64,000 nucleotides of DNA, taken from Tubulanus polymorphus. Its lineage: Eukaryota; Animalia; Nemertea. The position numbers and the translations under genes are program-made. Below, piece by piece: positions 36,801-61,148 of this stretch. The stretch is taken from positions 4,092,001 to 4,156,000 of the forward strand of contig NC_134029.1 in the NCBI RefSeq assembly GCF_964204645.1, read 5' to 3'. Numbering within the stretch: position 1 is the stretch's first letter; the number at the start of each line of letters is the position of its first letter. The notes beneath the pieces were generated by a model. That model had not been told where the DNA came from. It saw nothing but the letters and a program-made list of their open reading frames with translations, and ran no database searches.

Positions 36801-39332
36801 TTCAATTGCCTATTTCTAAAAACTGAAGGAGTTTTAGAGGAGTTTCAGGCATTTTACTCAAATTATGAGCTTCAAGCACCTTTAAAATGCATTTTCTGTT
36901 TAGAAGGAGTTTTTAAGGAATCAACTTGTAGGGACCCTAGATTAACGAGCCCTGAAGAGATCAATGTAAGTACCAATTATGAATTTGTTTAGAGTAAACA
37001 TCCAATTGCCTGAAGCGAAACAACGTACCTGTTAAAACTGTGAATTTTGTTCCTCTGACTCGTGATTTTCCATTCGCGAAGAACGTTTGCGTTTGATGTA
37101 GCGTGGCGTAAGGGATGATTGTTCGCGACGAGTGATTCTCAAAATCGGCAGAAATTGCTATCGATTCACCTTCAAAAAGGAAACAAATAAGTTCCTGAAT
37201 AACATATACAGTTTCATTCACAAAGTAGTAATCGAAAGAACAAGATATCCCGAAGAGGCTTTTCAAATAACAAGGAGCCTATCGGCTTTTATAGCTTCGC
37301 TGTGTGATTTGAAGAAATAGAAGTTGCATACCTAGGGGTGCCCCCTTTTGGCCAAATCCAAAAAGGGCTCTGTACTTTGTAGGTATTGGTCCATAGATTT
37401 AGAACATTCGTACCAAATTTGGAATTGATCTGATTAAAACTGTAGGACTAGTAGCGATTTGAAGAAAAAGTTGACAGATGCACGAACGAACGAATGGACG
37501 ACAACAGCTCACCCCCTAACCCGTCACAGCGGAGCTAAAAATCGCTTAAAACAAGTTTTAAATAGTTTGAATTCTTCCCCTAAGTAGGGAACCGGCAATG
37601 CTACTGTGGTAAGCAAAATTACATCAGGATTTGCCAGGTGTGGCTGTACAGTACAACATCAACACTGGATTTCTTCTTAAACTCAATTAAAATCTAATGA
37701 TGATTTCTCAAATTCTGCGTGATGACACATGAAAATTATGTGATCAAACTTAATTGAAAGTGAACTCATTTTAATCGAGTACATCTATTGTCTTAGTGGC
37801 GCCATTTGAAAGCTTCGATAGCTCATGTGCTGTTACCCAATTTTCATCAAGAACTTTTCAAGGTATTGTTGAGAAAAGAGTGACCTTACCTGGACAATAT
37901 CCTCGTCTGTCCGTCCGAGCGCTGATTGAAATAGGACCTGATGTACATAGCCAACAACATAACGTCTTTTCAACACTATTCTCCACGGGAATCTATGAGA
38001 AAAAAAAGAACTACTGTAATTTAAATAGCTCGTTGTAGTCTAAATAGGCTTTCAGAGTGGGCGTTTCATACCTGATACTCAGGTTTATTAATATCGATCG
38101 GACTAATAACTGTGAAAGCTTTCTTCGTTTTATGATTGAAAGACCACGGTTTGTCAATTTCCGCTTTTAACCAGTATCGTATACTGCCGTGCTTGCCCTC
38201 AAACGACGTAGAGATTCCGCTGAAATGATTAAATTACAGTACAAATTTAACGCGAAAAATTAATTTCATCTTTTGTAAATTTAGATATTCATTCTCTAAT
38301 AGGCCTATACTGGCATTCATCAGAATGTTTCCAGCTGTAACAGATGTTCGCAAACGAAAATCTATAACGACGTACACTTACCCCATCGGTAACTCAAAAG
38401 TGAAGTTGAACTCATGTCGACCTTCACTTAATGTTTCTCTCACAACAGAGGATTCTACAACAAAAAAACATATAAGAAATTTCCATTATTTCTTAAGATA
38501 ATCGATGAATAATAGAATAGCCACACTAGATAATAAGATTAAAACCCAATTTATACAAATTTAAGATGTTGAAAACACCAAATTGACACTGATGATGGGC
38601 TCTAGAAAGTGTTTGGAATGTCACATTTTGTTTCTTCCTCTTGATAAATAAATTTCGTCTTCTAATTTTTTCATGTACAAGTGAATACATAGAAAATTTT
38701 AATCTTTGTAATCACCTAAAAATGTTTACTTTTTTCATGTTTACGTAAAAAAACTCTTTCATATAACAATTGATTATCATTTATCAATACGTTTTCTCAT
38801 CCATATCGCTATACCTAATAAAGTCTTCTTTAGATATTTTCGCAAAATTTTCCGCTAAGACATAAAACATTATGCATTGCACATTCTTAACTTTGCCACA
38901 GAAAGACTAAGGAAATTTTTCTATGAGGCTGACAACACATAACTATAAAACAATTAACACAGTATGATCTACATTGAAAAACAGCAAGATTATCATTGAA
39001 AATTAGCAAATTTAATTTTAGGATATTTTCCCTTTTTTGACTATTCGTCATAAATTACTCGATGAAAGCTTACCTCCTCCAAATAGCACCTGACGTTTAT
39101 AAAAGTATTCGACTTCGGCGTTGTAATGTTCGGTATAGGAACCGAGTCGGGTTCCAGTGCTGCGGGATTCAGTCCAGTGAACTTTAGCTACGCCACGCAT
39201 GAATACGCGCAGGGCTCGCATCTTCATACTGCCCTTCAGTTCTAAAACGCATAGTCCTGTCACCCGTTCCCCAGGGTGGAAAACCGTCTTATTGTCATTA
39301 AGTACAATCTCAAAACATGTGAATTTACCCAT
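33816..39332 (-). CDS. ARRDC: Alpha-arrestin (arrestin domain-containing protein, ARRDC2/3-like)
   Basis: Exons ~39074-39332 (VFHPGERVTG..GVAKVHWTE), 38382-38454, 38071-38220, 37890-37992 (ISARTDRRGYCPG), 37029-37168, 36426-36540, 35833-36038 (LPIVIGTVPF..PPPY), 35324-35481 (PPTY, PPAY), 33816-33875 (IDPHPL..GSQL*). Three PPxY motifs. Confidence 0.92.
34518..34603. mobile_element. Small MITE-like element
   Basis: 11-bp TIR CGGGGCCAGTT...AACTGGCCCCG. Confidence 0.5.
35554..35682. mobile_element. Small MITE-like element
   Basis: TIR CAGGGTGGCCAC...GTGGCTACCCTG with internal TTCCCTGAG motifs. Confidence 0.6.
36574..36939. mobile_element. MITE-like element, family A copy 3
   Basis: CAGGATCCCTACAGATCAGTCATTCCTGGTTATAAGG ... 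AAGGAATCAACTTGTAGGGACCCT; the interior resembles 2885-3289. Confidence 0.7.
37269..37541 (+). mobile_element. Helentron-associated (HINE-like) non-autonomous element
   Basis: Starts AACAAG, has a CGAA/GGAC microsatellite (37482-37500), and ends in an AGCTC...GAGCT palindrome plus AAAAA, the usual HINE layout. Confidence 0.55.
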
Positions 39333-47612: not shown

Positions 47613-50315
47613 ATGGCTGACAAAGATGATCGTCCCGTATGTAAATACGGTGAAAAATGCTACAGAACGAACGCTGCACATTTATCACAGTTCAAACACG
47701 CACAAAAATTACAACAGGTATATTTTGTTTGCGTTTTGATGGTTTTTACTTCGTTTTGTCCATCTAATAAATTGTGTATGGCTTTGAACGAACTGCCCAA
47801 GAGTACTTTCACCGAAGGTAACCCTAAATAATGCACAGGGACTTGGCTGGACTGCGGGTTAATTAACCTAATTCAATTTCTAGGAACAAGAAAAACAACC
47901 AAAGATGCAGAAAAGAAAAAGTACCGAGACCACAGAGAGTCCTGTTAAAAAGAAAACGAAAATTGATGATTTCTTCCAAAAAGTATCGCCACCGACTTCA
48001 ACTGGAGGCCAGCAGGCTCAGAAAAACACTACAATTGAGGATTTCATTAAGAAACCAGACGTATGTAAAACAACTGCAAAAGAAGAAAAAGATGATGATG
48101 AAGCTGTTACAGCAGTCGAAGAAGCTTCCTCAAAAAGTGAAGTCACCGCAAGCCATGGGAACTCAAGTGGTTACATTAGACCTGCAGATAGTGATAATCA
48201 GGACAAGAATGAACCACTTGTTAAAGGTAGTAAAGTTTATTTGACAATCTTAAATCAGATAAATAGGAGTTTTTAAATTCCAATCTTAAAATTGGGGTAC
48301 TTAGAACTCCTGAATACATTTGGAATACCTATCAGCTATCTGGTTCACAATTAGTCAGTAACCTGTCTGTGGTTTAGTTTCACGATCGGATATTTTCACA
48401 AACCACATGATAATAATGTTGGTCATAATAATAAGCCCATCCGATTATAAAAAGCTTACCACCAACGATTAGGTAACTAACTAGTTCACAATCTTTTTTA
48501 GTTTCGAAAGATAAAGAATAGTTTGAAAATCAGAGTAGGAATTGGGCTTGTAATATGATTCGTTTTATTTTAGATGATAAAACTGAGTGTACTGATGAAA
48601 CCACTAGTACCGGTACTTTACAAGATGCCGCTCAGACAGAGATGGATCCTAAACAAAGCATCAAAGAAAAATTCCTCGTTGAAATGCCTGCAGATTTCTA
48701 TGACTTATGGACTCTATGTAAGAAGGTTAAACCATTGAAGCCAGAAAGTAAGCATCAACCAGATCAGGATTATGAGAAATATGTGAAGTGTATAAATATG
48801 GTTCAATTTATTAAGAGTAGTTGCTGTTGATTTGATAGGTGCATTTGCCAACTCAGGAGGGTTGAAACTGGTCGGCCCATATGATGTGCTCGCTGGTAAA
48901 TGCAAACCGTGTATAGAAAATCGTAAATATTTAATTCACTGGCGTTATTACTACGATCCACCGGAATTCCTTACTGTTCTCAAAGGTGATGATCAATCGA
49001 TGTTTCATATCGGATATTTCAGGTAATTAGTTCCAATTTAAAACATGAAATTGAACGGTACCCCGGTATTTCAACTCTATATTACAACTTTCTATTCAGT
49101 GTTCTTATAGATCGGGGAATTCCAGATTGATCTTTCTCTCATCAGGGCGTCACAAACAATATCTTATAATTTATCAGGGAATTTTTGTACAAGGGTCAGG
49201 GAAATATATCTGGAAGTTCTATTGTGTGGGTTCATAGAAATTCAAGTGGAGTTTTTTTTTCAGAGATGATCCTAAGGAAATGCCAGCATTCGTAGCCAGT
49301 AACTCTGCAGCTAAGGATTGTATCATAACACCTCGAGGGGAAAATATTTTCGCGGCTATTGCGTAAGTTAGTTGGATTTTATCATGAGGGGAAACCTCTC
49401 TGACCTCATGTACAGACAGGTAGTTGAGACATAACCACCTCCCGAATCTCCTATACCCAATTTGGACAAGTTCGAAAGAATTCCAAATACTAACCTTTTT
49501 ACTGGATTACTTTAATGCGCCTTTGAACATTGAATCAGTGACAAAGAGTCCTGATATTTTTTCAATAACTTCAATTTAAACATCTTGAAAATTGGTTTAT
49601 GTTTCAATCTTATAGGTGGCATTTAACTGAACAAAACAAACATACAAAATCTAAAGAGGTCGAAAAACTTCTGCAGCAAGTAAAAGACTTCGCCGCTGAA
49701 CACAATTATAATCTTGATCTTAAAACTCAAAGTATGAAAGAACGCAATAAACGAGTTGTTTGCAAGACATTCCACGGAGCCGGGCTCGTCGTACCCGTTG
49801 ATGAAAATGATGTCGGTTATAGACCCGTCCCTGAAACTCCAGGTTTGTTCAGTGTTGTGAAAAGTTTAATAGGGTCTAGATTTCGAACAAGGATCTCGGA
49901 AATTTTCGAAGTTTTTAATTCCATTCTGCAAGATATTTCTTGAAACAAACATTTTTTCTATGTGAATTTGATACTTTTTTCAGGTGATCTGAAGAAATTG
50001 TTCAAGAAAATCAATGACAGCAAATCTGAGGCCGAACGAAACAAGAGCCTCGACGAACTTCAGGAAATCGTGACTCTAGTACAATTCGCTAACGACGAAT
50101 GCGATTACGGAGAAGGGTTGGAGTTAGGATTGGATTTATTCTCGTACGGAGGCTCGGAGTTGCACTCGTTCATAAAGATGTTGTTACCGATCGGATATAG
50201 ACTGACTGGACGAACTGAATACGAACAGATAATCGTGGAACATTTGAAAAATCGTCGTAAAACGGCCGAACTGAGTCAGATTTCCACGAGTGGATTTCGC
50301 CCAATTCAGTGCTAG
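47613..50315 (+). CDS. HPF1: Histone PARylation factor 1 with N-terminal PBZ zinc finger
   Basis: [20 protein letters not shown] (PBZ); [11 protein letters not shown]; [11 protein letters not shown]; IGYFR|DDPKEMP; [16 protein letters not shown]; [20 protein letters not shown] (contains the catalytic Glu). Seven exons. Confidence 0.95.
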
Positions 50316-54706: not shown

Positions 54707-55758
54707 ATTTATTCACACGAACACTTAACGATGTCAATTCTCTGAAGATAAACTAAACAAACCACTGGATTTTGCAGATTTTGTCCATTATGAATTTAAT
54801 ATACACAGCGATGTTACAATACATCTTGTCACTGAATTTCATGACAAATTCACACTCACCAGATGTGCATTTATACATAGAGCAAAGCTTACTAAGTAAT
54901 CTACATACAGAATCACCATACATAAATGAATATCGAGGACAATCTGCTTAAATACATGGTTTTCATTATCTGCTCTCTTTTCTATAATTGTATAATTACA
55001 CGTAAACTATGTATTTGGGAAGAGGGAGCTTTTTATGAACTTACTGTTTCTTCGCAAGCGCTCAGACTTATCAGGTTTTTAGAAACTATCCGGTTCTTAT
55101 ATCTTGATTAGTAAATGTAAATAAGACCTCTGCACTAGGCCCACTTAGGAATGATAAGGCTTATCAGAGATTCATCGAAAGGTATCCTGCAAGCTCGTGG
55201 AAAACTAACCTACTTCTTTGAATACTCTCTATAAGCCCTCATGTCGTATAGATCGTTTGCCAAATCATCCTTAGCAATGTAAATGAACTAATGAATATTC
55301 ACAAGAAATACCAATATAAACTCTGATTATTGATTATCATCTATCTAGGATACTGAAATTTCGTTAGTAAGACTATATTATAACTCAACAGCACTTGAAC
55401 CCTGACTTCATGTGTTTGCTGGAAAAAAATTGACATTGTTCTTTGTTCTACACACATATATAAAGCCATAATAACCTACGTATCGCACACACAGAGTTTA
55501 CTGCACCATGATCACTATCCCTTTCCTAACGAATACATACACTAAAATAAGCAATTTTTTTCTAAAATCCGATTACGTATATTTCATTCGAAACAATCAC
55601 CCACACAGGACGACTACAATATGGTATTAATATATATGTGCACTGTGTCAAGTGCCGCAATACATGATGTTAATTTGAATGTCTATTCTAAACTGGCAGT
55701 CAAATGAAACGGTGCATTCTTTCATATCCGCAGCCTGTATCCTAGCATTCATTCGAAA

Positions 55759-58700
55759 TCATTGCGTTTCATTCACGTTTTTCGCTTTCTGTTCGTCTTG
55801 TAAATTTTGTAATGTTTCCAATTGTTCCATTTGCGTTTCGTAAACTTTCTGTTGTTCGTCAGCCATCGATTGAGCACGTTTTGTTTGGGCCTCGACAAAC
55901 GTGCCCATGGCTCGGTGGGTGAACAGGATGAATCGCTCGGCACAAGAACTTATACACTGTTCCTATGAAAACATAGCAATGGATGGTAATTATTTGTCGA
56001 CCATAAATCAATATATTCTCCATTCGGGACTTCAAGGTGTCACTTGAACTCAACCAGTATATGTAAGCTGTATAATTCCTTAAAATGAACTATTCAAAAA
56101 TTCATAATTCATTTTGTTACAAGTCATTTTTTAACAAAGATAATAACTTCTCCGAGCTCATCAATCTCCTCCTCAACCGGAATTATCCAAAATTTCAGAA
56201 ACTGAAATTCCAATCAATCTAATGCCCAATGTGGTAAATTCTAACTCTTTAAAAACGCCATTAAGTGGTTACAAAGACTTCTCCTTCATAACCTAGATCT
56301 AAAGCCCATCTTTTATAAAAATTCATATAAGTTTACTGCCAATTTCCACAATATTAAATTACAGATTCTAATACTAACCTCTTCTGTTGTGATTTCTCTT
56401 TTGTTAAAATTCGAGGCGCATGACATAAAACAGTGTTCAGTTAAGAAATTATACTGCGTCAAATAATCCCGAAACTGCAAAGAAATCGATGAATATCAGT
56501 TAAATTTGCCGCCCAACTTTTCAAAATCACATACTAAGTTAACTACGACTAAATTTCATCGCTATTCTAGAATCATTAAGATGTATAATGCAATAGAAGC
56601 GTTTGTTTGAGGCAGTTAGGATTAGTAAGACCTATTGCTAAGATCTATATGTTGCTACAAAACTTATCGATCACTTCATTGATTATCTCAAAATCCCATT
56701 GAAAAAACAATAACTCGTGTTTAGAAACACAGTGTAAGCTTTTTATTGGCAGAAAATCAACAAAAAAATGTGAAAGCTACACTCATTATCAAACAATACA
56801 CACGCACTAAGTCATTTATAATCTAAATCATTCAGTTAATTTTCGCAGGTATCAATCTTCAGCCTGAATCTACCCCACTTTACACATTCAACATTGTAGT
56901 TCGTCTTAATGGTAAGCCAATAAAATGTCTAGTGTATTTGGTTCATTTCCAATCAAAAATGTCTGAGGCGAGGTCACGAAGCCTTGACTTTCATAAATTG
57001 GAAGAATGGTAATAATCTATCGAATGTTTGATATGGTGCTGGCTCCAGAGCGCACATTAATACCTGCATTAAATGCATTATCATTTTAGGAATTGTTTAT
57101 ACAGATCTCTAACGGTATCGGTTGTTGTTACCGACACTTACTTCATATTCTTTACAAGGAATGTCAATCGATCTACCGCCAGTATTTACAATTTGTATAA
57201 TTCTTTGAAAATAGATATTCAAAAATTCATTATTTCCTTCAGTTGGAAGAAGTTATGTTTCTACAAACACTTCTCCAAGTATATTCTCTTTCCCTCCCAC
57301 ATCTCCGATCAGATTCGTTCATTATTTCTCACACATTGGAAGAAAAGTTTTTTAACGAGAGCAAGGCGACCGAAACTCATCCGTGTCTAATCGCTAAAAA
57401 TTCACTTCTTGTTCACACAAAACGGACACAGGAACAATTCGTAAGCAGATTTCGATGTCGCTAATTTCTTCGGGCAGCATTTTAAATGCACCCAACCGCG
57501 ACAATGAACGTTTGTACAACGAGCCCAGTAGAACCTCCTCGAACCGTCGTAACCTGGCGGAACGCAGTTATCACAAACGCTACAAATAAAACAGATTCCT
57601 CCTTCTCCGTCTTCATCCTCGTCGTCGCTACTATCGTCCGTTTCGTCGGCGGAATTCGCGTTCGTTTCCGCACGAGGCGCCGAATCGTCGGATATCATCA
57701 CGTTCACGGGAGAGACAGGTGGCGCCGGACGCACCAGACGTAATCGCTTCGACATCGGACTCTCTTCGACGATATCCGCGTAGCACTCGGCGGTCGAGGA
57801 CGAGTCCAAAACGCAGTCGACTTCGTCGTTTGCGATATCGATTTTACTCATCAATTTCTCCGGGTTGAACGGTAAGATACCGACCGCGTGTAAATCACGC
57901 GCAAATCCGTCTTTTATATCGGTAAGGCGATTTATGACGAAATCATCGAGGTTTCCTACATCAGCGTCGTCGGCGTATATCCGCGCCAACGGTCGAAAAC
58001 AGTTGGCGTAGTCGCAGTAGTCGCCGGCACGCGGAGGTTGTGGGAACAGTTTCACGTTCATCGCAGTCGCCGCTTCTACGATACGCTGATTGATGAACGA
58101 CGCGTAACCGTCATACAGCAGTAAAACCGTTGTTTCAGTCATCGCCGTTTTAAAAACGTTTTTAACGAAATACTCGCGAAGCCACCGGTCGAAGCCGATG
58201 CCGTCGATTCGAGCGCGGCTGGTTCGCCACCGATACGCCGGAATGACGACGTCCGACGAACGTACAGCGTTCGCCGCGTACAGAATCGCCGAATCCATGT
58301 TCGAACTGTCGGCGATCGATTCCACGTAGAATATCCGCTCGGGTTTTTTGTCGAAGTCGTTGATCGTAAGAACGACGTTCAGTTTATCGTAGTATTTTTG
58401 CAGCGCCGATTTCGTCGCGGTTTTTTTAGCCCGCGCTTCGTTCGTTTTTAACGTGGAAATTTCCGTCCATTTACGAGTGAAAGATTTATACCATTCAACG
58501 TCGGGAACGCAATTCAGAAACGGACATTTTCGATTCGGGTCCGCCGCGCAAAACGTATGCGCCAAATGACCGGCCATTTCCATGATTTCCGATTCCGTAT
58601 AACTGAATCCCATCTCGGTCATTTCTAATAGATATTTCACAAATCCCTGCTGTTCTTTTAACGTGAAGAACTCCGAAGCGTTCTGAGCTTCTTCCTGTAA

Positions 58701-60458
58701 CAGATGAAAATACGACTTAAAATAACCGGAAAGAACCTTAATGCATACCTTCGTCAGATCTTATGAAAGGGTCTGAAATCATGACCAAGGCTCAATTTCT
58801 CCATTGAATGATTAAGTGAAAATCATAAATATAAAATTTTCATTTCATAAAATCGATATTTTGCATCAATTAGATACCGGAACACCGGCTATACAATCAG
58901 ATGGCGCCATTAACAGATGACGTACTCAATCAAAGTTCATTGTCAATCAACTTTGATCTCACTTGGTCTTGCGATCCAAAAATTATGCACATTCAGAGGC
59001 TTTTACAAGGGAAGTAATTTACATAGCAGTTAACAGGATTTAGCTTTTTTTAGAACTTACCTTCAAATCATCTGACTGCATGGTTGATTTCTCAGTATGG
59101 CACTGATTCTCGATTGTATCCTAAAGTACAATTTGTTACGATGAAACACAAAATAAAAATCCCAGCAAAAACGAGGCCTGATCTGAGAATTCATTTTGCC
59201 GATGTTCCTTATAAGTTCATGTAAGATTTTGTAAGATTCTGAAGCTGAAATTGTGTTAGGTGCTAAGGCTAATAAATAAATATGGTGAATTTATTGGTAA
59301 GAGGTAGACATATTAAAATATACCGTGAATAAGTGAATTAATTGTACTTACACAAAAAATTTAATCCAGTCTTCTAAAAAACAGCTTACTAGGAAACTTG
59401 CTCTTTTTTTCTTATAAAATCACACAAAATTATTTTTTTGAAAATCGCACAAAAAAATCCAACTAGCCAACAATTTTTTTTCGCTGCTTCAAACCATGCA
59501 CGAAACCGGAGTAGGCAGGAAAATCCAACTGGAGTCTAACTCCTCTTACCAACAAATTGAGTTTAAATACAAATATTTGAGGGTCACATTCCTTTCTATT
59601 TTCAACACTCTTATTCAAACCTAATTCATAGGCAATTGAACGGGATTATGGTAACTGTTAAGTTAGTGATTGAAGAGTCTTCAATTCGCTGACATTATTG
59701 AATAAGAACTGAACGATTGCAACATTCGTACGTCCCCTCCCAAAAATTTCGGATTTCGACATCATTCATCAAAGGATCATTCAGGGAGATCAAGTACATC
59801 TGGCCCAAAATCAACATTTTTTACATAAAATTTTACTAATTACTGCCTAAAAACGTATACATTTGTAGCAGTAAATTCTAATTTCACTTGAATTGTCAGA
59901 TTAGCATTTTAGGGCATTGATTAGCACTGTGAAGAAGAATTCTCTTTAAACTTTATCCGTACGTCATGATTTAGGCTAAAAGATGGAAAATATTTGATGA
60001 TTAAGTATATGCAAACTGTCAATATCATCGGTGATCATGACATCTCAGTGTTAACAAACTGACCGAAATCTAGTAATGGCATTTAGGCTACCGCCCAGTT
60101 GTTGCGAAACAGCAAATTGAAAGTTCGACCCTAACAGTTAAAATCTTTTTATTTTTTGAGGCAAAAAGGTTATGATTCCGTGGATCTGATAAGCAATAAG
60201 GGTCAATGTAATGTGTATAAGTTTCGAGGGTTAAGTGATTGGAGATGAAAATACTGGATTTGTTCTAACCGAAATAAATGCAGTTTGACCTCAATAAATC
60301 TTAATTGATCTGGATTGACTTTCTTTGGTTTGGGCCTGCCTCCCAGATAAAAAGATGTTTTGAGTTTTATTTCTTCATTTCTCCCGATTTAGTTAGATAA
60401 AAACATGAAAAATATGTTAATTTCTTACATTTCTGAGACTAGCGTCTTGCATCTGCAT
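55759..60458 (-). CDS. TIMM10B: Mitochondrial small Tim chaperone Tim10B/Tim9b (109 aa); absent from the ORF track
   Basis: Exons 60429-60458 (MQMQDASLRN), 56379-56474 (FRDYLTQYNFLTEHCFMSCASNFNKREITTEE) and 55759-55962 (EQCISSCAERFILFTHRAMGTFVE..TQ*). Twin CX3C motif, LRN|xRDxL signature, all phase-0 GT-AG junctions. Confidence 0.88.
57402..59120 (-). CDS. Domesticated pogo/Tigger transposase-derived protein (CENP-B-type HTH, degenerate DDE_1, acidic tract, PHD finger), nested in TIMM10B intron 1
   Basis: Exons 59061-59120 and 57402-58694 are in frame. FTLKEQQGFVKYLLEMTEMGF..WYKSFTRKW (HTH); PERIFYVES (from IFNxDETG); VLLLYDGYASF; NVKLFPQPP; C-terminal CSVC..WARCTNVHCRGWVHLKC..CPFC (C4HC3). 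No TIRs seen. Confidence 0.85.
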
Positions 60459-61148
60459 GTTTTCAGCGTAGTACTGAGGATATTTGAGAAAATTTCGGAA
60501 TAATTTTCATCATCCTCGCCTCGAGAAGTTCTTGAGAATTCGCAGACCGCGGAAAGCAGGATTCGAACTTCTCAACATTCCAACCCGCATTCACGCGTGA
60601 CTATTCAGCGATTATTCACTGAACCGAAATAAGTTTTACATAAAATAGCAGCAAAATAAATCAATTTAGTAATTGTGAATTGAAACATTTTCTTGAATAT
60701 AATTAAGGATTTAATATTTTGTTTGATATTTGTTCGTTAGATGGCGTACGCGTTCATTGTGAATATGACGAGTTGCGTTAAGACATAGCCCCGTAACTCT
60801 GTTTATCGACCTGTCAAAATAACTCGAAAGTCAGAAAAAGTCTCCATAAACTAAAGAAACATTTTATTTTACAACATATGGTATGCCCGTCTGACTGATA
60901 GAAAGGTTGGTTGATTGTAATGTGGTCGAATATTTTCTCTCGTTGCATTTCAACTTGTTTTTAAAGCAAGATACAAAAGAATTGCTAAAACCTTTCGCAT
61001 AAATTCAATTAAATCGAGAATATATTGATCATTTTCATAGCTGTCATTGCTTCAAGTTATTCATATGCGCTCGCTGATACCTTTACAGGTGGCCAAATAA
61101 AAACTGGCCGAACTTAGAAGTTTGAAGTAGGAAAATCTGAAGTGCGAG

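Follow-up and report, generated by a model that had tools for sequence, protein, structure and literature searches.

In CSB-PGBD3 a piggyBac element serves as an exon trap in intron 5 of ERCC6, and host and fusion mRNAs are both made (PMC2268245). Host-transposase fusions of tetrapods have also been traced to intronic insertion with alternative splicing to upstream host exons (10.1101/2020.05.07.082677), and in insects Su(var)3-9 and eIF2gamma, two unrelated proteins, are made from one promoter with a common N-terminus, the guest exon lying in a conserved intron of a housekeeping gene (PMC1435931). For each of these systems we draw on the accessible part of the report. Here we analysed a 64,000-nucleotide stretch of the nemertean Tubulanus polymorphus (contig NC_134029.1, positions 4,092,001 to 4,156,000; hereafter the window), in which an earlier reading of the sequence, here called the original prediction, had placed a domesticated pogo-transposase gene with a PHD finger inside intron 1 of TIMM10B. 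The account that we favour, with moderate confidence, is that a decayed pogo-type gene lies on the same strand in TIMM10B intron 1, is spliced to an exon 1 that is very likely common to both genes, is probably kept by selection, and likely encodes a chromatin-binding protein that no longer cuts DNA.

The pogo and TIMM10B transcripts

Four sequencing runs (X1 to X4) from one study contain the stretch, none of them recorded as RNA; run X1 covers it in one piece and is possibly the source of this DNA. We used their Logan contigs, which are built from 31-mers with short contigs dropped (k and the 150-nucleotide cut as given in the accessible part of PMC12424806); the shortest contig seen here had 151 nucleotides (nt). 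Run X2 was read as RNA because of seven canonical splice joints, and runs X3 and X4 were treated as DNA because they lack splice joints and show a recurring linker at their loose ends. One run X2 contig of 1981 nt passes unbroken through 60458-60429 > 59120-59061 > 58694-56804, which establishes the structure of the pogo mRNA as 60429>59120>58694, the chain that the original prediction had drawn from the letters. A second contig of 575 nt (56465-56379 > 55962-55475) holds TIMM10B exons 2 and 3 in spliced form, so that the joints seen in this run at the locus are 60429>59120, 59061>58694 and 56379>55962. We drew no ranking of the two mRNAs from contig depth (~207 and ~74).

The exon coordinates, splice sites and phases proposed earlier were all correct on checking the DNA. 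Exon 1, the middle exon and the large exon (Table 1) join into a stop-free frame of 460 codons across introns of 1308 and 366 nt, while exon 1 and TIMM10B exons 2 and 3 join into a frame of 109 codons across introns of 3954 and 416 nt; the introns are GT..AG, the splice sites are canonical throughout and every join is in phase 0. A TGA lies in frame upstream of exon 1 at 60509. The protein of about 460 residues that had been predicted is exactly that long and is letter for letter identical to RefSeq XP_074650896.1, isoform X1 of LOC141905776 of Tubulanus polymorphus, annotated as 'uncharacterized'. RefSeq isoform X3 of this locus, a product of 437 residues, begins at the ATG of the middle exon (59081); the run X2 contig is unbroken there and so gives no sign of a major separate 5' end for that isoform.

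The intronic AATAAA at 56747, expected between the pogo stop and the 56474 acceptor, is present and is the only AATAAA or ATTAAA on the minus strand within 55000-57402. The pogo contig ends at 56804, immediately before position 56803, at which run X3 has a variant, and an unclosed fork at 56803 reproduces the 1981-nt length of the contig in a graph simulation; this end is thus compatible with an mRNA that ends shortly past the AATAAA, at a predicted cleavage site.

The host gene carries the twin CX3C motifs of a small-Tim domain, CFMSC in exon 2 and CISSC in exon 3. The two exons match positions 11-40 and 41-63 of PF02953, each alone falling under the cut-off. Exon 2 matches residues 14-45 of both human Tim9 (26.8 bits) and Tim10B (20.5 bits), starting near position 9 of the 64 in PF02953; for exon 3 the sole listing is Tim10B, at a weak E of 1. 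The name TIMM10B, as against Tim9, comes from these weak and split exon matches and is to that extent slightly open. Tim10b is reported to have arisen from Tim9 (PMC7523481, accessible part), and its role is treated in 10.1101/869289 (accessible part). A metagenome stretch (L001, the one of 323 considered with the exon 2 frame) was rejected, as the words in common came from the translated intron flank and it had no CX3C.

Ancestry and present state of the 460-residue protein

Besides the protein itself, a full protein search gave 128 relatives, none of them close (22-41% identity in matched stretches), and the first Atlas match of the protein was at 0.94. DDE_1 was found in all 19 relatives scanned, most of which also had HTH_psq or HTH_Tnp_Tc5. 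The 460-residue protein alone stayed under the Pfam cut-off, and the sequence P0002 gave no match to PDB sequences and no Pfam family at 0.01; a profile built from 23 relatives matched the protein in three stretches (E 1.5e-42). The order of HTH_Tnp_Tc5 followed by DDE_1 is that of the pogo superfamily. Among the 99 relatives with letters at all three catalytic sites, DDD is kept in 71, and 66 of these have the DD35D spacing that has been reported for Passer and for Fot/Fot-like elements (PMC7386202, accessible part). The relatives are unnamed, and DD35D is compatible with both groups. By these comparisons of relatives and profiles, together with the fold matches given below, the protein descends from a DD35D pogo-type transposase, as had been proposed.

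Its catalytic core is degenerate. The first catalytic position, Asp in 103 of 116 relatives, is E155; the second, D225, is kept; and the third Asp (85/107 relatives) is lost, so that two of the three catalytic Asp residues of an active pogo transposon are missing. Two gaps, one of 22 and one of 15 profile columns, shorten the distance between the first two positions to 70 residues, compared with 103-119 in 67 of the 71 intact relatives; in all, the DDE region has lost some 40 core residues. From the broken triad we infer a transposase unable to cut. The first 55 profile columns, corresponding to the HTH_psq present in 84 of 128 relatives, are likewise absent, and the remaining helix-turn-helix (HTH), of the CENP-B/Tc5 type, occupies residues ~38-110. 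We considered whether exon 1 and the middle exon might be remnants of HTH_psq and rejected this, since their similarity did not rise above shuffles (256 and 1052 of 2000). A structure model from 96 alignment rows (mean pLDDT 74.8) matched Mos1 (4mdb; Z 11.9, root-mean-square deviation (rmsd) 4.2, 182 residues aligned), and its HTH matched CENP-B (1hlv; Z 6.8, rmsd 1.9, 60 aligned). Since the models rest on alignments of intact relatives, these matches speak for a compatible fold and not for function.

The C-terminal domain retains all eight of the best-conserved Cys/His columns, with zinc ligands in a Cys4-His-Cys3 arrangement (C401, C404, C423, C428, H433, C436/C437, C453 and C456). Folded alone, it gave 50 listed matches, all of them PHD fingers or PHD-bearing chains; the best PHD fold match among those listed was the ARID5 PHD, with a modest Z of 5.4 (rmsd 2.0, 49 aligned), and the Pfam PHD match was weak (E 0.34). 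A PHD is present in 48 of the 128 relatives, 32 of which have an intact DDD, which argues that it is native to the transposase group rather than an addition from the host. Judged from these relatives, the PHD finger is ancestral to the group; this, the broken triad, and the loss and replacement of the N-terminal HTH_psq refine the earlier description of the protein. A protein that combines the surviving HTH and a PHD with a dead core may be expected to bind chromatin in the nucleus.

Five relatives (P0008, P0018, P0031, P0065 and P0118) have altered triads and yet long open frames, and may be further domestications. Three of them (P0008, P0118 and P0031) group with the query at a support of ~0.8, possibly through long-branch attraction.

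Is the protein in use or is it decaying? The locus has several marks of a domesticated gene. A single DNA contig (run X1) covers the open reading frame (ORF) at 90% identity, with no second one; no paralogue was found among 2881 candidates of the protein search; and around the ORF there were no TA-flanked inverted arms of at least 10 nt and no notable flanking inverted pair, so the terminal inverted repeats (TIRs) and target site duplication (TSD) of an active transposon are missing. Copy number was judged from the contigs of one run at 90% identity and from protein searches. The intact ORF is expressed, and 430 codons stay open despite several deletions. In simulated neutral substitution, 28 of 2000 runs kept the frame open at 0.1 substitutions per site, 0 of 2000 at 0.2 and none at 0.3, while the best identity of the protein to the 62 intact relatives is 27%, the median nearest-neighbour identity among those relatives being 53%. 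No orthologue was retrieved from which to derive a ratio of nonsynonymous to synonymous substitution (dN/dS), and the domestication put forward in the original prediction is probable on the grounds of copy number, missing TIRs and the expressed open frame. On the strength of frame retention, we think it fairly probable that the protein is currently under selection.

The strongest alternative, which we regard as rather unlikely, accepts the common exon 1 and takes the pogo product to be a tolerated relic of exon trapping, under weak or recently ended selection and with no present role. The points that follow weigh against our account. No orthologue appeared in the protein searches (128 relatives, 2881 candidates) or in a metagenome scan (596 stretches, no relative of the pogo protein). 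Two coding differences were seen in one run X4 contig (depth 7), and each alters the protein (F230S and N232D). Among 102 rows the protein has the longest terminal branch, 2.13 where the median is 0.5 (the tree left out 27 of 129 rows for low cover); a branch of this length could reflect relaxed constraint or, equally well, a new role. HTH_psq is lost, and the only candidate nuclear signals are weak basic stretches. The true parent element is unsampled, so that neither the time since immobilisation nor the real distance is fixed. Against a relic, however, 430 codons contain no stop in spite of two catalytic changes and of several deletions, each of which preserves the frame; eight of eight zinc ligands are retained; neutral runs lose the frame by 0.1-0.2 substitutions per site; and there are a clean extra exon and a single terminal AATAAA.

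The first exon and the proposed mechanism

That TIMM10B starts from the same first exon is possible in the DNA, and the contig graph bears on it. A contig leaving a fork in a 31-mer graph begins 30 nt ahead of the fork, and the pogo contig begins exactly 30 nt ahead of the exon 1 donor. We simulated the k=31 graph under six splicing scenarios. Only one of the six gave the start at 60458, namely that in which exon 1 also joins 56474; intron retention moved it to 60457 and skipping to 60456, and a join of the middle exon to TIMM10B broke the contig at 59090. Without a fork, a single variant mimics the start at only one (60459) of 132 positions. The pogo contig thus begins where a second exit with a base other than G would cut, and TIMM10B exon 2 begins with T. 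The domain also sets an expectation, since an exon 2 that matches residues 14-45 of human Tim9/Tim10B, near Pfam position 9, needs a first exon of ~8-13 codons; about 8 upstream domain positions are required and exon 1 supplies 8-10. The closing residues of exon 1, LRN, are presumably those before position 14 of human TIMM10B; a database check of exon 1 was blank. On this evidence exon 1 is very probably common to TIMM10B and the pogo gene, by way of a predicted joint 60429>56474.

It is improbable, by comparison, that exon 1 belongs to the pogo gene only, TIMM10B starting from another short exon in a part of the intron that RNA does not cover and the contig start at 60458 being due to a variant at 60459 or to a minor exon at 60185. 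Such a reading draws on the observations that speak against sharing. None of the 6-7 run X2 contigs aligned to the stretch contains the joint 60429>56474; the sharing proposed in the original prediction has a strong but indirect fork signature and not the joint itself, and all RNA evidence comes from this single run, which carries no RNA label. In addition, the start of the TIMM10B contig, at 56465, falls 9 nt inside exon 2 and was reproduced only post hoc, with an assumed, unobserved variant at 56466 and unspliced RNA. Exon 1 with its flanks gave no match in PDB, and no database match to Tim10B was found. A TIMM10B protein of Tubulanus polymorphus was not found either (exon 3 searched at 36-118 residues, the exon 2 frame at 106-2000), which is uninformative in that isoform X2 of LOC141905776 is likewise absent from the cluster. 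Of 77 ATG-to-donor candidates in 56475-60800, exon 1 ranked only fifth by generic donor score, and contigs of less than ~150 nt are not visible. A TIMM10B start from another exon between 56474 and 57402 was not seen; RNA cover is missing from 56475-56803, 58695-59060 and 59121-60428, where short first exons could have escaped notice. Yet a pogo-only exon 1 requires the 1-in-132 coincidence or a surviving faint branch; the best-scoring rival first exon (59081-59061) and four others, all inside the RNA-covered part, would each break a contig that is observed to be unbroken; and exon 1 has the right length and phase, besides the presumed LRN likeness.

A faint run X2 contig (60183-59963, depth 3.7) begins 2 nt past a strong acceptor, and its end falls precisely on a GT, as happens by chance in 6 of 1078 sequence windows. 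The segment 60185-59963 (minus strand), if spliced to exon 1, stops after 15 codons and is a possible poison exon. As this possible minor exon also starts with a base other than G, it could share in the fork at the exon 1 donor, which further tempers the case for a common exon 1.

In the sequence of events that we propose, the element would have entered TIMM10B intron 1, been trapped as a terminal exon, and lost its own ends and first HTH, from then on depending on a housekeeping promoter and start codon. Transcription from the TIMM10B promoter, predicted in 60459-60796, would leave two options. In one, exon 1 is spliced to 59120 and the transcript ends at the intronic AATAAA, giving the 460-residue protein; in the other, exon 1 is spliced to 56474 and both pogo exons are removed, giving the 109-residue TIMM10B. 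The choice would lie between a near acceptor with an intronic poly(A) site and a far acceptor. The ten common residues likely add no function to the pogo protein, which is predicted to bind DNA through its remaining HTH, to pair through its dead DDE fold and to read histone H3 tails through its PHD.

A bolder version, which we put forward only tentatively and consider doubtful, holds that this is an old, selected nemertean chromatin factor, gained by capture of a promoter and start codon, with its own histone reader and a dead catalytic scaffold, and made at the expense of TIMM10B by a regulated choice of splice and poly(A) sites. If true, the regulated choice would tie mitochondrial carrier import to a nuclear regulator. 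A search for a long-range RNA duplex that could loop out the pogo exons gave a best value of -24.2, not above shuffles (-23.4 to -28.0 in 15), and Rfam returned 0 matches, so no RNA structure steering the splice choice stood out. These negative results also bear on the very improbable idea that the arrangement owes its retention chiefly to a role as a regulatory switch, in which the pogo exons and early poly(A) site divert transcripts and lower TIMM10B output while the protein is secondary; the two mRNAs are mutually exclusive by layout and the same intron may hold a frameshifting minor exon, yet a switch has no need of a 430-codon frame and an intact PHD. Finally, it is hardly credible that the element is a recent transposon, or one still mobile, from a family that is aberrant by nature. 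The relatives are mostly intact transposases and the copy count does not come from a whole genome, but the element has no TIR or TSD, its ORF is spanned by only one DNA contig at 90%, its triad is broken and its first HTH is gone; the recent multi-copy, TIR-flanked element envisaged as a counter-case by the original prediction is thus not what was found.

Gene layout and comparison with known systems

Table 1. Features of the TIMM10B/pogo locus, in positions of the window
Feature	Position	Strand	Remarks
Exon 1, coding part	60458-60429	-	10 codons; phase-0 donor GTAAGA; observed in the pogo mRNA, predicted for TIMM10B
Middle exon	59120-59061	-	20 codons; contains ATG 59081; run X2 contig
Large terminal coding exon	58694-57402	-	CENP-B/Tc5-type HTH, degenerate DDE core, acidic linker, PHD finger
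3' untranslated region (UTR) of pogo mRNA	57401-56742	-	RNA contig to 56804; AATAAA 56747-56742 is the predicted poly(A) signal
TIMM10B exon 2	56474-56379	-	first CX3C; RNA contig covers 56465-56379
TIMM10B exon 3 and 3' UTR	55962-55475	-	second CX3C; coding part 55962-55759, stop at 55759
Head-to-head promoter/5' UTR region	60459-60796	.	exon 1 (-) versus AAA-ATPase gene (+); plus-strand contig from 60797; predicted

The large exon has 50% GC and a CpG observed/expected ratio of 2.0, the flanking introns 33-34% GC. An 80-nt repeat, 75% identical (E 1e-6), occurs at 56033-56109 in TIMM10B intron 2 and at 57155-57234 in the pogo 3' UTR, where 56920-56964 is also matched by unrelated DNA and RNA contigs and is probably a piece of an interspersed repeat. 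The second pogo intron holds a 29-nt near-palindrome (58897-58961), with a weak look-alike at 37739-37809 of the window. Facing exon 1 in head-to-head orientation is an AAA-ATPase gene (PF00004; 60797-64000, plus strand), presumably katanin p60 A-like 2. The RNA contig of this gene begins at 60797, and as the exon 1 ATG (60458) is ~340 nt away, a single short region may drive three products. On the other side, an amidohydrolase gene (~54706-51043, minus strand), which we take to be allantoinase-like, starts less than 800 nt past the end of the TIMM10B mRNA, and an HPF1 gene (49944-50315, plus strand) converges on it; both are useful synteny markers.

A literature search found no account of this locus within its reach; subscription papers and supplements lay beyond it, and gene lists there could hold similar cases. 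The mechanism is already known, we describe it in one species, and selection and function are predicted only; the variant is that the host lends no more than its promoter and ten codons and that TIMM10B survives. Here, as in CSB-PGBD3, the transposase forms one large terminal exon in a host intron, with an in-frame acceptor and its own poly(A) signal. In CSB-PGBD3, however, the piggyBac ORF is joined to five exons of the host, and selection has been demonstrated across primates (PMC2268245, as far as accessible), whereas the present element is pogo-type, receives 10 host codons and no host domain, has an extra 60-nt exon, and carries a core that is both deleted and mutated.

As in the tetrapod fusions, an upstream exon is spliced in frame to a transposase exon, but only 10 host residues are involved and they bring no host domain. 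In the tetrapod cases host domains such as KRAB or SET are fused, and the older fusions mostly lose the parental transcript (10.1101/2020.05.07.082677, accessible part); here the transposase itself brought the chromatin-reader domain, the species concerned is a spiralian, and the parental TIMM10B mRNA persists despite deep decay of the transposase. Su(var)3-9/eIF2gamma shares with our locus, besides the architecture outlined above (with the common promoter and N-terminus predicted here), one nuclear product (predicted here) and one that is not. It differs in that 80 residues are common, the guest there encodes an enzyme of the host and the layout dates back ~400 million years (PMC1435931, accessible part), in contrast to 10 residues and a transposon-derived guest here.

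With respect to the protein, the closest likeness is to the domesticated pogo genes CENPB, JRK/JRKL, TIGD2-7, POGK and POGZ, which also have HTH_Tnp_Tc5 and DDE_1 ancestry and altered triads and lack TIRs (PMC7386202, PMC7325037, accessible parts). Those are vertebrate genes with measured ratios of nonsynonymous to synonymous substitution (Ka/Ks) below 1, according to the same sources, whereas the nemertean gene belongs to an HTH_psq/DD35D/PHD group, is not their orthologue and is nested in TIMM10B. The locus points to invertebrate pogo transposases with their own PHD finger as a ready source of chromatin readers. At loci of this kind a conserved gene, here TIMM10B, can go unnoticed because the annotation reads 'uncharacterized'. 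The documented transposase captures are mostly from vertebrates and involve the gain of a host domain; the route suggested here is leaner, with an old host gene that contributes nothing but its promoter and first codons. Such a host gene is not easily given up, which would allow both products to persist.

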